Assembly: GCA_964106915.2 (NCBI GenBank) | Contig: OZ066919.1 | Source of the DNA: Podarcis gaigeae | Lineage: Eukaryota | Strand: one strand, 5' to 3' | DNA: 64,000 nt | Part shown: positions 19,019 to 26,666 of the stretch, piece after piece | How positions within the stretch are numbered: the first letter of the stretch is position 1 | How the letters are laid out: every line of letters starts with the position of its first letter | Program-made: the position numbers and the translations under genes | The notes under the pieces: model-generated | Database searches by the model: none | What the model was told of the DNA's origin: nothing | Seen by the model: only the letters and a program-made list of their open reading frames with translations

Positions 19019-19425
19019 TGTGATGGGATAATGAGCTGCTTGTGCGTAAAGCTTGATCCCTCCAGGTTTTGGCTGGTCAGCCAACCTGAGTCTCTAACGG
19101 AGCCCCCAAAGCATGACTCCGTCAGTCGCTGGTAGAATCCGACAGTGGGCGTCTACGGAACTTACTCCAACATAAAAGCTGTTTGACGGACATGCACCTC
19201 CTGGACTCTCTGCGTGACAGCTTCCGGCGAGGGGTGGGGGTTCCTAAAGGGGGTCTTGTTACCTCCTCACTGTTCTCACTGGAAGTATCCCAGAGCCTCC
19301 CCTCCGACTCCCTTTCCCTTTGAGCTCCTGCTCTCCCCCTACTGGTTCCCTCTTCTGCTGCAGAGTCTCTCCTATTCTCCTGGAGCCTTTCTACCACCTG
19401 TTCTTCCGATGGCAGTTCCCTGACA
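19019..19425 (-). mobile_element. Solo LTR, 407 bp (probably Ty3/Gypsy-type), with internal open frame
   Basis: TG...CA termini, perfect 5-bp TSD TATAG (19014-19018, 19426-19430); begins TGTCAGGGAACTGCCATC, identical to the 26197 element; strand assigned from the ORF. Confidence 0.85.
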
Positions 19426-19755
19426 TATAGCTGAAACTTTGTCTACAAAACTTATATATTCCCTGTTCTGAAAAATGAAGCATTAGGAACCAGAACCAAA
19501 TTCTGAAGAACAACTGGGTATGTTGGGTGAGGGACTGCACATCTGATTGATCAATCATGTTTAGAAACAAACTTATCTGCACTCAGAAAGCTAGCATGTC
19601 ATAGACACTATAACTTTTTTGCTCCAATATGGTATTTTATAAATGTCTATTTAATATGGAGGAGTATCCAGTTGTGTAATTTTCCACATGCATTCTGTAC
19701 TATCTTGGAAGGCTACATCTCATCAATCTCTGAACATGTGAATCACCCTCTAGAG

Positions 19756-19885
19756 CAAGGATGGATAAGCTGTGGCCCTCCAGATGTTGGTGTAACTCCC
19801 ATCCTCTCTAATGGCCATGCTGGCTTGGGATGCTGGGTGTTGGAGACCAACAACATCTGCAGTGGCACAGGTTGCCCCATCCTTG
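19756..19885. mobile_element. Fold-back hAT-type MITE
   Basis: CAAGGATGG/CCATCCTTG TIRs with perfect 8-bp TSD CTCTAGAG. Confidence 0.85.
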
Positions 19886-20404
19886 CTCTAGAGTTTCTCT
19901 CCCATATATTTCTAGTCCCTAACTGAACATCAGGCAGAATTTTAGGAAACAGAAATAGAACTAAAAAGTGAAGTGATCTGGCAAAGATCTAAAAAGAGAG
20001 CGCGTAGCACACAGGAATAACAAACTAGTGACATGATTTCCTGTAGAGCACCTCTAAGTAAATCCCCAAGAAGTGCTGGTATTCTATGCACTTTTTCCAT
20101 AAACCGGGCAAAAATGTTATTCTGAAATACCCTTTTCTGCCCCCTCCAATGTGGAAAATTCAAATTTGCAGCATGAATCAGTAAGTTATTTTAATTCATT
20201 TGCAGTTCAATCCTATTTATTTTACTTCCTCTAATAAATGTAGATAACTATGAAACTGTATAAAGTTCACTTCTGAGTGTCAGTTTTACAGAGAATATAA
20301 GTGTTTGAGATAGATAGGAGTGCTGTGGGGGTTTTTAAATCTGACACTGGGTAATTAAGTTAAAATAGAATGACTTCTTTTTTAAAAAAGGGAGGTGGGG
20401 GCAG

Positions 20405-20538
20405 GGGCCATTGTATGCAGAAGATACCAGGTTCAATCCCTGGCATCTCCAGGTAGAGCTGAGAATATCTCCTACTGAAACACTGGAGAGGCAATGCCAA
20501 TGTAGACAACTCAGCATAGGGCAGCTTCCTATGTTCCT
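20405..20538 (+). mobile_element. tRNA-derived SINE (cttcctatgttcct-tailed family)
   Basis: ccaggttcaatccctggcatctccagg (B box)...ggcagcttcctatgttcct. Confidence 0.7.
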
Positions 20539-20862
20539 AGAGAGAGGGGTGGTGGACATTGAGGATTTGTGACCCAATCTGGAGGATGGTACGACAAGCT
20601 TCATAGAGGTACAGTTCTTCCAAGTTCCCTTCCTCCCGATAAGCAACTCCTAATACCAGGCAGCTAGCTACTGTTGATGCTACCAAGGATTTTGAGAAGT
20701 GACATCAAACACGGCATGAGAAGAAATGTGAGAAATCCTCCTCCACACATGGAAGCCCCTTCTGGTGCCTAAAGGGGGTCTATGAACCACACCCTTAGTC
20801 CATATGATTGTACTACAGTGTTGTTGCTATAAATTAAATGGTGCTTATAATTTCATCTTCAG

Positions 20863-23234: not shown

Positions 23235-23448
23235 CTCTTCGATTCCAACTTCCAGTATTGTTAGACTCCCAATTTCCATTGGGCCAGTCAGCATGACCAA
23301 CAGTCAGGAATAATGTTATGTATTTATATTGGTTCTTATATTGTAAACCACCCTGTGATCTTTGGATGAAGGGTGGTATAGAATTATTTATTTTTATTAT
23401 TAATGGAAGCTGAAATTCAACCACATCTAGAGGGCTTCCCCATCCCTG
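23235..23448. mobile_element. Fold-back hAT-type MITE interrupted by a LINE 3' tail
   Basis: MITE halves separated by gtaaaccaccctgtgatc..gaagggtggtataga and an AT-rich tail, flanked by TAATG repeats; boundaries approximate. Confidence 0.5.
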
Positions 23449-25034
23449 CTGTAAATTATGCAGCAAAGCTTTTGGAAGCACGTCAGCTCTGGAGTGGCTT
23501 AATAACCTTGGTTACAAAAGGACATCATCCCAATGTAATGAGACAATTTAGATTGTGTAACTTCACAGTGCCTAACAAACTGAAGTTCAGTCTTGATTTT
23601 TATAGCATCAATAACCAAAATGGATGATGGCATGCCATGAAACCATGTGCTTTACCCTGCTCTTATGATATACCTCCATCCAGGTATTCTTGCAAATGGC
23701 ATCAGACCAGACAAGACCATGGAGACATCTCCTATGTGCAAGTGACTAAATGTACAAGTGGTTAAATGTGAATCAGGCCTCAGTTTTCTTATTACAAGCA
23801 GTTCCCCAAATGAAAAAAGTTGCTTCAGACTACCCTAGCACTAGATTAGCTAAAGAGAAGACAGAAGGACTTCCAAGATAGGAGTCAGATAATTGCGGAG
23901 TGTATCGATTCTGAAAGTTCGGTGGGGAGCAACTGTGAAAGGAAAGAAGCGCTATCCAAGATGGAATCAGATACTTGTCTAGAGAGCTAATATATTGGGA
24001 AGGAAATGTCCATATTACACAGCATTATAGATACTACTTGAAGGAAAGAGTTTGATGTCCATATTTTCATATAAACTATCAAGTGGAATGCAGTAGTCTT
24101 ATGCCAAACAATCCAACATTTATTCCACCACTGCAAGGGCGGACACCTGAAAGGGACTCTCAGGATCTATTTATGGACTCTTCTATAATGCAATCCTATG
24201 CACATATATATGGCTGCTAAGGTATGTATTCAATGCAGCATTAAGTAACCTCCAATGAGTGTAAGTAATTCCACTTGTGTAATGGGACTGTCCTCCCCTT
24301 TCTTTCCCCCCCTGCATGGCCCCTCAAACTGTTTTGGGGCTTTCTCCAACCTTCTGGGGCAGATTTAGGGAGAGTGGTGGCGGCACACATGGGGGGAGAA
24401 GGAGAGACAAGTGTAAATCCTTATGCTGATGAGACAATTACTTAGCTGTGCACTAGGTACAAACCTGTGTCCTTATAGATTCAACAGGGCTTATTTCCAG
24501 ATAAAAGCATAAGATTGTAGCCACCATCAGATAAATTAGGAATCTGGATGAATTGCTAAAATATAAAATACTAAACAGCAATTATGAGAACATGACAGAT
24601 AAAATTTAGAATTAAACAAAGCAAAGATGAATACAACACTAGGAGAACATTCCTAGCAATAGGAATTGAAAGACTTAGGGCATCTACATTTATTTCATTT
24701 TTTACCAGATTGTATGAACAACAGGATAACAACCAACTAGTATATCTCATGTAATCCTCTGAATATGCACTAAACTAAGAAATGGTGACTCTAATCAGCT
24801 TCCAGAAATATGAAAACAAAATCCAGAGGATACAGGCTATTGTGGATTTACTAAATGAGAAATTAAAAAGCTTCCCCTGAAGACTCTTTGTTCTCTGAGC
24901 AATTACCTGGTTACTGAAAGTGTGATTATCCTGAACAGACTCATCAATCTCTGTGTGATCTGCCTCAATCACTACATCTGGATGAGAGTACCATGCAGTG
25001 TGTGAACTAATTAAAATCTAAATTCCACTCTTAC

Positions 25035-25197
25035 CTGTATGTTGTATTTGGAATATAAACATCCCTTGCAGGAAACTCCAGGATCTCTCTTGTTGGTCGT
25101 ACTCTGCTATCAGGGTAAAGTTTGACTTGCAGCAACTCTGGCGTTAGACAGTAATGTGGGTTTTCTGGGGCTGGAGAAATGTCTATCTTCAATTGAG
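25035..25197 (-). CDS. DOCK7: DOCK7 exon 14 (163 bp)
   Basis: [55 protein letters not shown]; tag/gtaaga. Confidence 0.96.
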
Positions 25198-26196
25198 CTA
25201 TGAAGAAAAATTAGCAGTATAACCAATCTGGTAAGCAACCATTTGCCCGGCTGCCAATGATGAGTAACAATCATCACCAGGTGGTGAATCAGGAAAACTT
25301 TACAAAATATGGTCGTTTTTTCCTTTTAGCCACCAAGTTCTAATGTTGCTTTGCATAGGTAGGCAGGCATCATGATAAAGTGACAGTGTTGGGATAATAT
25401 AGTGTTATCGTTTGTGTGTGTGTAGTCTTAACATAACAATGTTGCTGCTTAATCACTTTAAAAATATGCAACTTCTAGTTACAAAGTAGAGCTACTGCTT
25501 TGGAAAACAAGAAAATAATGTTAACACTCTTCTTTCTTTTTATTTATTTTAAAAGCGTGCCTTTAAATATTTTCTTGTTCTGCATTAAAAAAGTAAGTTT
25601 CGCTCTTTCTGAAAGACCACTTGCTCGTGTATGTTTTAACAGGAAAACAGGTAGCTGCCTTATGACGAGTCTGATCACCGGTCCATTAGCAGCCTGTCTG
25701 ATCACTGGTCTATCTAGCAGCCTGCCACAGCCAGGTGCTAAGTCAGGAAGATGAGCAGAAATAACTTTCCAAGATCAACACCCAGCCTTGTGTCAAAAGG
25801 TTAGTAAGATCTGATCAGTTTGGGGACTTTACTTGTAATACCTATTTGAGTTTAATAGTCAAAAGGCAAGAAAGTAAATATTCACACAATTCTTTTCCAA
25901 AAGAAGGAATTTGGCATGATAGCAAACAATATACTGGAAGGTTAGGATTGTCAATCCCCAGAAGGGGTTTTACTTGCTTAAGGCACTGTTGGAAAAATAA
26001 CTGCTGCTATCAAGAATGACTCATAAGGCCTCTCAGACTTTGTTCCTCCTGGGGGCCGAAATCTGAGTCGTTCAGATAAAAAAACAAACAAAAAAACAAG
26101 GGAGCCAGCCACATAAACAACAGTTTCAGAGGAATAGTGGGGGAAAACGAGATTAATTTGTAATATTACTTTTCTAGTTCAGCACTGATTAGCTAT

Positions 26197-26666
26197 TGTC
26201 AGGGAACTGCCATCAGTTCAGGAGGGAGAGAGCAAAAGCCAAATGGATTATAGAGAGCCTCCAGGGATCGGCCTCCAGGGATCGTGGGAAGTAGCTCCTC
26301 TTCAACGGAGGAGAGTAAACATGCCTCCAGTGGAGAGGAGGTGCAGGAGTCGGAAGTGGCAAGGCAGTCCCAGGACTCCTTGCCTGGGAGAAGCAGGGAG
26401 GAAAGGAGTCCTCCGCTGCCCACACCCTCTTTGCGCAGAAAGCATTCGCGCAGAGAGGGGAGGTGCAGACTGGGCGTCAAGAAGCTGCTTTGCTGGGGAA
26501 TGTTTAGGAACCGCGCACTTACGGATTCTGCCAGCAATTGAGTTAGCCACGGGAGAGTGGCACTCCGAACAGATAAAGTTTATTTTGGCAGCAAAGCCAT
26601 GGATTCACAGCCAAGTAGGGAGATATTTGCCTGCTTGCTCTTGAGCAACCCCTTGGAAACATAACA
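26197..26666 (+). mobile_element. Solo LTR, 470 bp (probably Ty3/Gypsy-type), with internal frame
   Basis: TG...CA termini, perfect 5-bp TSD GCTAT (26192-26196, 26667-26671); shares its first 18 nt with the 19019-19425 element. Confidence 0.85.

Follow-up and report, generated by a model that had tools for sequence, protein, structure and literature searches.

Long terminal repeats (LTRs) are treated as non-coding. In a window of 64,000 nucleotides (nt) of Podarcis gaigeae (contig OZ066919.1; the window is the whole stretch of DNA analysed, and all positions are counted within it), two solo LTRs carry frames that end in recognisably the same peptide, and the question arises what this peptide is and why it is found in an LTR. 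From our analysis, both window peptides are the C-terminal tail of the Pol protein of a chromovirus and not the product of a separate LTR gene. The LTR coding stretch is under selection as protein and is accounted for as the tail of Pol in an already known class of element; this tail carries an undescribed motif of putative function, and the same bases form the end of Pol, a predicted core promoter and a self-primer. We have very little doubt about the observations behind this answer, namely the continuity with Pol, the order of domains, the purifying selection, the frame-keeping lengths, the co-varying primer and primer-binding site (PBS), as well as the related motif in a sister family.

The LTR peptides as the C-terminus of Pol

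In a six-frame search of the genome with the peptide of the first window LTR (family 1), the best 150 of 9,542 candidates were scored, and all 150 matched at 90–100% identity, 16 of them within open frames of at least 1,000 amino acids (aa). A frame of 1,379–1,380 aa ending in this peptide was present in five of the eight elements fetched for long frames; it continues across the polypurine tract into the 3' LTR, where it spans the whole of U3, with its last 100 residues LTR-encoded. Along the 1,380-aa Pol (P0003), Pfam identifies a protease (PR), reverse transcriptase (RT), RNase H (RH), integrase (IN), a Tf2-like SH3 domain and a chromodomain (PF00385 at residues 1141-1188; 34.5 bits, cut-off 25.1), and it places gag in an overlapping frame upstream of Pol. 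The best match of Pol in the PDB is Ty3 Gag-Pol (E 1e-140). Gag followed by PR-RT-RH-IN between two LTRs, TG...CA ends, a short target duplication and a polypurine tract before the 3' LTR are the features of a Ty3/gypsy LTR retrotransposon, and the chromodomain at the integrase C-terminus is that of a chromovirus; no envelope frame was seen in L011. In family 2, to which the second window LTR belongs, chromodomain and tail lie in a single frame in L025, L029 and L031 (three of the 16 regions selected for their longer frames), and there is one broken full element with matching target duplications.

The same protein end is present in UniRef, where the Podarcis muralis models named 'Gypsy retrotransposon integrase-like protein 1' (P0004-P0006, P0008-P0012) end in the tail. 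For family 1, these models and CAI5765087.1 of Podarcis lilfordi are 57–70% identical over the tail region; the records shown for the two species assign no domain to the tail and make no mention of its position in the LTR. Taken together, the full-length frames, the order of domains and the P. muralis models ending in the tail identify the LTR peptide as the Pol C-terminus. Reverse transcription copies this end of Pol into both LTRs. As such, every solo LTR of the lineage, of which the genome holds at least hundreds, carries protein-selected sequence that could pass for a host gene or for a conserved element.

Copia-like frames lie inside the family 2 element L036-L037 (LTRs 97.6% identical) and also beside the family 1-like element L038, in which a second family 1 LTR follows the start of the 3' LTR.

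Selection on the tail protein

All selection tests used natural copies only; 93 copies of the 43-codon core that ends Pol were collapsed to 75 distinct sequences, and one indel-broken copy was dropped. The initial annotation of this locus had proposed purifying selection on the region shared by the two LTRs, and the comparison of dN/dS (omega) between frames that it suggested bears this out. For the 75 distinct cores, a codon model gave an omega of 0.38 versus 1 (twice the log-likelihood difference, 2dlnL, 69), whereas four of the other frames gave 1.25–1.58 and the antiparallel frame that shares third positions 0.59. Stops occur in one of the 75 cores in the tail frame and in 14–75 of the 75 in the other frames. 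Within the 35 codons upstream of the primer, dN/dS was 0.16–0.27 between subfamilies, where synonymous sites are near saturation, and 0.61 for near-identical pairs. Along 15–20 natural Pol ends (L146 being excluded for an upstream frameshift), omega was 0.07 for integrase and SH3, 0.10 for the chromodomain, 0.22 for an internal acidic linker, 0.39 for the acidic part within the LTR and 0.20 for the LTR core (2dlnL 85 against an omega of 1). The last eight codons, which form the primer part, gave a weak protein signal (omega 0.31, 2dlnL 6). Since six-frame genome searches gave at least 150 matches for each window peptide and the frame is under purifying selection, the shared peptide goes beyond chance.

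The lengths of the LTRs follow the frame as well: the distance from LTR start to primer was a multiple of three in 85 of the 91 copies measured (main lengths 267, 279, 285 and 306 nt), and the length from primer to LTR end is not frame-kept (36/21/27 by remainder). Within the core, Val, Lys, both Leu, Cys and Phe are each encoded by several codons. The Arg nine residues before the Trp was never Lys in 94 copies, and was Lys in one of eight copies of family 5, a group of older family 2 relatives; conservation counts are otherwise drawn from the 94-copy alignment and not from later pattern tallies, which presuppose several of the residues. Between the two window cores themselves, the differences by codon position are 18/7/23.

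Self-primer and probable RNA start

The PBS after the 5' LTR is not tRNA-like and is the complement of the 11 nt that encode the L-[ST]-D-S end of Pol. With the LTR site located independently, 30 of 40 junctions showed a perfect match of primer and PBS, with four variant pairs among them, and shuffling gave a mean of 9 and a maximum of 19; the comparison is descriptive, as related copies are not independent. Five of 45 junctions had no anchored site. The two family 2 junctions that are nearest to the second window copy agree at 10 of 11 positions, and a third one (L146) at 9 of 11. Primer and PBS are paired in the minimum-energy fold of L012. Self-priming from the RNA 5' end is described as the Tf1/Sushi mechanism (PMC4600332, PMC6317226). 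The view that the shared motif is selected as protein, put forward in the initial annotation, thus stands for codons 1-35 and gives way at the final L-[ST]-D-S, which is conserved because the same 11 nt are the self-primer that co-varies with the PBS; a better explanation by an RNA motif was among the refuting conditions that this annotation had named, and it applies to this part of the motif. Ser/Thr/Pro exchange is seen in the last eight codons.

The RNA very probably starts at the first base of the primer, in which case only the 3' LTR of a full-length RNA gives rise to a translated tail, both window copies being passive remnants. The Pol tail would then cover all of U3 and stop a few codons into R. 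The promoter of a solo LTR would not drive expression of the tail, because the tail is located upstream of the inferred transcription start. Contigs of four runs, each under its own organism code, cover the element and carry no information on expression.

The two solo LTRs in the window

Both elements had been described beforehand as solo LTRs, correctly so, as TG...CA ends and 5-bp (base pair) target-site duplications were found for each. The young family 1 LTR (19019..19425, minus strand; 407 bp) is 99.5% identical to the 5' LTR of the full element L012 and is flanked by TATAG (left 19014..19018 (+), right 19426-19430). Its copy of the last 100 codons of Pol with the stop (19122..19424, minus strand) corresponds to residues 1281-1380 of P0003 and comprises, in this order, an acidic Ser/Glu part, a Pro hinge, a basic stretch, LLCW and the primer-overlapping end. 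The conserved 43-codon core with its stop occupies 19122..19253 (minus strand; Trp codon 19167-19169), and the predicted 11-nt self-primer, complementary to the PBS of the full elements, occupies 19136..19146 (minus strand), at the inferred RNA 5' end and U3/R border.

The older family 2 LTR (26197..26666, plus strand; 470 bp), whose nearest relatives are 79–89% identical in protein, is flanked by GCTAT (left 26192..26196 (+), right 26667-26671). Its 43-codon core and stop lie at 26410..26541 (plus strand; Trp codon 26494-26496) and its predicted self-primer, one base off the form in L024 and L036, at 26517..26527 (plus strand). The tail frame starts at LTR base 2 in both copies. The frame coordinates and counts first reported for the pair were right: 26 of 43 residues are identical in a gapless alignment with the stop in register, and 13 of these 26 use different codons. 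The second frame had, however, been taken as a single open frame at 26198-26541, whereas a 14-bp tandem duplication (26257..26284, plus strand) breaks it, so that the conserved core sits in a different frame from the LTR start; the relatives L021 and L024 measure 456 bp.

The family 1 LTR lies antisense in the last intron of an ANGPTL3-like gene and the family 2 LTR downstream of that gene, which we take from its translation to be ANGPTL3-like (10752-21050, plus strand) and to be nested in a presumably DOCK7-like gene with exons on the minus strand. Both window copies are mid-chromosome.

Sister families

Three further families bear on the reach of the motif. Family 3 (L079, G000:C1:80066200-80073300; L041-L078) is young and very abundant, with at least 150 exact tail copies, a 760-bp LTR and a Pol of 1,566 aa, 207 of them within the LTR, and with an 11-nt primer/PBS match at the very end of Pol; in families 1 and 2, the LTR-encoded tail measures 100–110 aa. 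Family 3 shares 55% identity in Pol with families 1 and 2 and retains both the basic stretch and L-x-W with unchanged spacing (hhalign E 7.6e-5), and the invariant columns of alignment A2 include an Arg and a Trp nine residues apart. In a tree of the lizard families and two distant matches, which carries long-branch warnings and includes no reference elements, family 3 joins families 1 and 2 at 100/100 and family 4 falls outside. In family 4 (L151-L178, L232, L233), Pol also runs about 117 aa into the LTR, with a different, acidic tail that ends near PRRSARL, its stop just before a GATAAAAG box. The older family 5 (L179-L190) has the same core as family 2 with Pro instead of Ser/Thr at the primer-overlapping codon.

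The families also differ in their chromodomains. Group I chromodomains are described as having three aromatic cage residues, Y, W and Y, and group II chromodomains were reported only from plants as of 2013 (PMC3605345). Family 4 has all three aromatics, families 1 and 2 only the Trp, and family 3 (L079) lacks the Trp as well. The chromodomain of families 1 and 2 (P0003 1141-1188), without the first and third cage aromatics, resembles group II and nevertheless has an omega of 0.10. Among the 30 loci that a chromodomain search of the genome returned, 28 were family 4. Of 20 stretches, most of them chosen for variant tract patterns, 17 showed no sushi-type Pol.

Comparison with known systems

Judged from its sequence, the element belongs to the Ty3/gypsy chromoviruses and shows the priming signature of Tf1/Sushi. 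Like the Tf1/Sushi chromoviruses (Tf1, Tj1, Sushi-ichi) as presented in PMC6317226 and PMC4600332, it has the order PR-RT-RH-IN-SH3-chromodomain and a PBS complementary to an LTR segment instead of a tRNA, and its LTR start TGTYA resembles the LTR motif given for Sushi (PMC3601003). Unlike them, the lizard Pol covers all of U3 with 100–207 extra residues and a conserved terminal motif, and the chromodomain of families 1-3 lacks the full set of cage aromatics. In the two distant chromoviruses met in our searches (P0020, P0019), Pol ends at or just past the polypurine tract.

The closest layout is that of plant CRM group A, in which the polyprotein is described as running into the 3' LTR and as encoding the CR targeting motif there (PMC3059260, PMC3605345), the partner of that motif being unidentified in the account of PMC3059260. 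The lizard element is laid out like CRM group A and is not a member, because it keeps its chromodomain and primes itself; in CRM, priming is by tRNA-Met, and in group A the CR motif replaces the chromodomain. CRM group A is further described as concentrated at centromeres; lizard families 1 and 2 are not concentrated at one chromosome end.

The initial annotation had instead named lentiviral nef and sag of mouse mammary tumour virus as the known exceptions to non-coding LTRs, a list from which the closest case, the plant CRM chromoviruses, was missing. The coding sequences of nef and sag overlap U3 of the 3' LTR as separate genes on their own RNAs. The lizard frame, in contrast, is the end of Pol and not a reading frame of its own, and the idea of a small stand-alone LTR protein of this type is not supported, as the tail is continuous with Pol and lies upstream of the inferred transcription start.

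The proposal of a coding module in a squamate retroelement LTR that matches no annotated domain has held up better. Pfam returned no family for either window peptide at E up to 1, a PDB profile search with the core gave 10 sequences at E up to 10 (best 0.06), all unrelated, and the ESM Atlas had no usable match, a result that indicates neither absence nor novelty. A profile search of 1.84 billion representatives found five matches, all tails of the tail-bearing lineage and one of them named, from Podarcis lilfordi; no host gene or non-lizard relative was seen among these five, in a database in which transposon proteins are poorly represented. Searches of the open literature brought up no account of a vertebrate Pol running into the LTR, and Repbase, Dfam or subscription journals may describe these families.

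Putative function of the tail

We lean towards the view that the solo LTRs are those of a Ty3/gypsy chromovirus with Pol running through U3, whose tail likely remains attached to the integrase and likely anchors the integration complex to chromatin via an Arg-rich helix. In such a mechanism, the long acidic, disordered spacer (44 Asp/Glu in 145 residues) would keep a short basic motif (27 positions, of which 13 are Lys/Arg and one is acidic) extended away from the end of the integrase, and this motif would bind the nucleosome surface at the H2A/H2B acidic patch, with L-x-W as hydrophobic anchor. For this more specific proposal, that the acidic spacer presents a nucleosome-binding motif that may double as a nuclear import signal, we consider the chances evenly balanced. 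Should the tether exist, it would be an undescribed integrase targeting module of vertebrates, parallel to the plant CR motif, and the tail is short enough for peptide format. For the MAGGY chromodomain, a fusion to the Tf1 integrase of fission yeast is described in PMC4600332.

Known acidic-patch binders share with the lizard tail a short Arg-rich motif in a disordered chain, with no significant sequence match. The spacing of R717/W726 and R522/W531 in CENP-C, as given in PMC6776904, equals the nine residues from Arg to Trp in the lizard core, a likeness that is weak in an Arg-rich run, and PRRSARL of family 4 is close to the HMGN acidic-patch motif RRSARLSA reported in PMC12487698 on HMGN and Dsup. 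Three points favour a nucleosome tether: conservation of the hydrophobic residues, and of the Arg nine residues ahead of the Trp, is tighter than nuclear import would demand; the spacing is that of CENP-C; and family 4 has an HMGN-like motif at the same place.

Several points weigh against this reading. The PDB profile search returned neither CENP-C nor HMGN nor any other acidic-patch binder, and the AlphaFold model of the core is weak (mean confidence score pLDDT 63, one helix at residues 30-40). CENP-C has two adjacent aromatics (YW or WW), whereas the lizard Trp is preceded by Cys, Asn or Ser. An Arg nine before the Trp would be expected by chance somewhere in an Arg-rich run and probably counts for little. 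The chromodomain of families 1 and 2 is still strongly conserved, so the tail is not a simple replacement for it, and none of 70 junctions of these families on C1 lies in its terminal satellite zone. Among the 16 fetched regions, there was no family 2 Pol that was both intact and full-length. Lastly, in families 1-3 the codon for the Trp is found 23 nt upstream of the primer, and family 3 has a TTAA-containing stretch unchanged at -31 to -19; the promoter DNA may therefore be under the same constraint, and an overlap between promoter and protein constraints is probable.

Among the alternatives, one that we consider unlikely but serious is that the tail, although the C-terminus of Pol, acts only as a nuclear localisation signal for the integrase or pre-integration complex, without touching chromatin. 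In Ty1 and Ty3, basic clusters at the C-terminus of integrase serve as import signals, and the 13 Lys/Arg with a single acidic residue behind an acidic spacer would suit this role. An import signal, however, tolerates exchange of Lys and Arg and requires no hydrophobic core, whereas Val, Leu-Leu, Cys, Trp and Phe are kept through synonymous changes and the Arg before the Trp stays Arg throughout the 94-copy alignment, though not in every family 5 copy. It could also be imagined that the conservation reflects DNA or RNA constraints only (core promoter, initiator and self-primer) and that the open tail is tolerated, functionless read-through. This is true for the last eight codons, with their primer/PBS co-variation, Ser/Thr/Pro exchange and weak protein signal, and both the fixed distance of the Trp from the inferred start and the unchanged TTAA stretch of family 3 fit it. 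For codons 1-35 it is largely refuted, as the low dN/dS between subfamilies was obtained with the primer excluded and with synonymous sites near saturation, the second Leu codon may be TTA, CTT, CTA or CTC with no TATA-like word there in family 2, and changes in U3 length keep the frame; as a full explanation we consider it very unlikely.

Hardly more probable is a separate accessory protein like nef or sag, made from a spliced RNA, from an internal start or by protease release from Pol. The tail is long (100–110 aa in families 1 and 2, 207 aa in family 3) and of low complexity, and a Met is encoded early in the LTR of several family 2 copies; this Met is absent in family 1 and L031, there is no stop between tail and Pol, and U3 lies upstream of the inferred start site. 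That the two window copies have been exapted by the host locus and are themselves under selection has next to no probability. The frame of the first copy is indeed open and within introns of two overlapping host genes, but it is nearly identical to LTRs of full elements, and so young a copy would be expected to have an open frame; the second copy carries a frameshift, and near-identical copies show an omega of about 0.6, closer to neutral.

Genomic distribution and the 510-bp satellite

If the tail tethers integration to chromatin, the distribution of the families becomes of interest, and here the evidence on targeting appears mixed: families 1 and 2 are dispersed, and family 3 seems enriched in a 510-bp satellite yet also occurs near opposite ends, with some copies amplified along with the array. 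Family 3 was present in three of eight satellite samples versus two of 12 other end samples, and on C1, 37 of its 112 matches fall in the last 0.8 Mb (megabases) and five in the first 0.8 Mb. In L222, a single insertion point is common to two LTRs, which marks copies amplified with the satellite array.

The satellite itself, as judged from sampled chromosome ends, lies near the telomere at exactly one end in seven of nine chromosomes sampled at both ends, at neither end in two and at both ends in none (related stretches L222-L226, L228, L230, L231, L235, L238, L243, L246, L248, L251-L253). Lacertid chromosomes are acrocentric, and the satellite is possibly centromeric. The boldest form of the tether, which we regard as improbable, is that independently of plant CRM, lacertid chromoviruses evolved an LTR-encoded nucleosome tether, HMGN-like in family 4 and with Arg-x8-Trp spaced like CENP-C in families 1-3, and that family 3, its cage gone, has been steered into the 510-bp satellite as a centromere-seeking retrotransposon of vertebrates. 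Family 3 would in that case point to lizard centromere DNA.

Tandem arrays with periods of 46 bp and 84 bp lie at the starts of C17 (L239) and C21 (L241), in samples that lack the 510-bp satellite. Contig G000:C32 (29.5 Mb) carries a large share of the copies of both family 1 and family 4 and, as a guess, may be a W chromosome.

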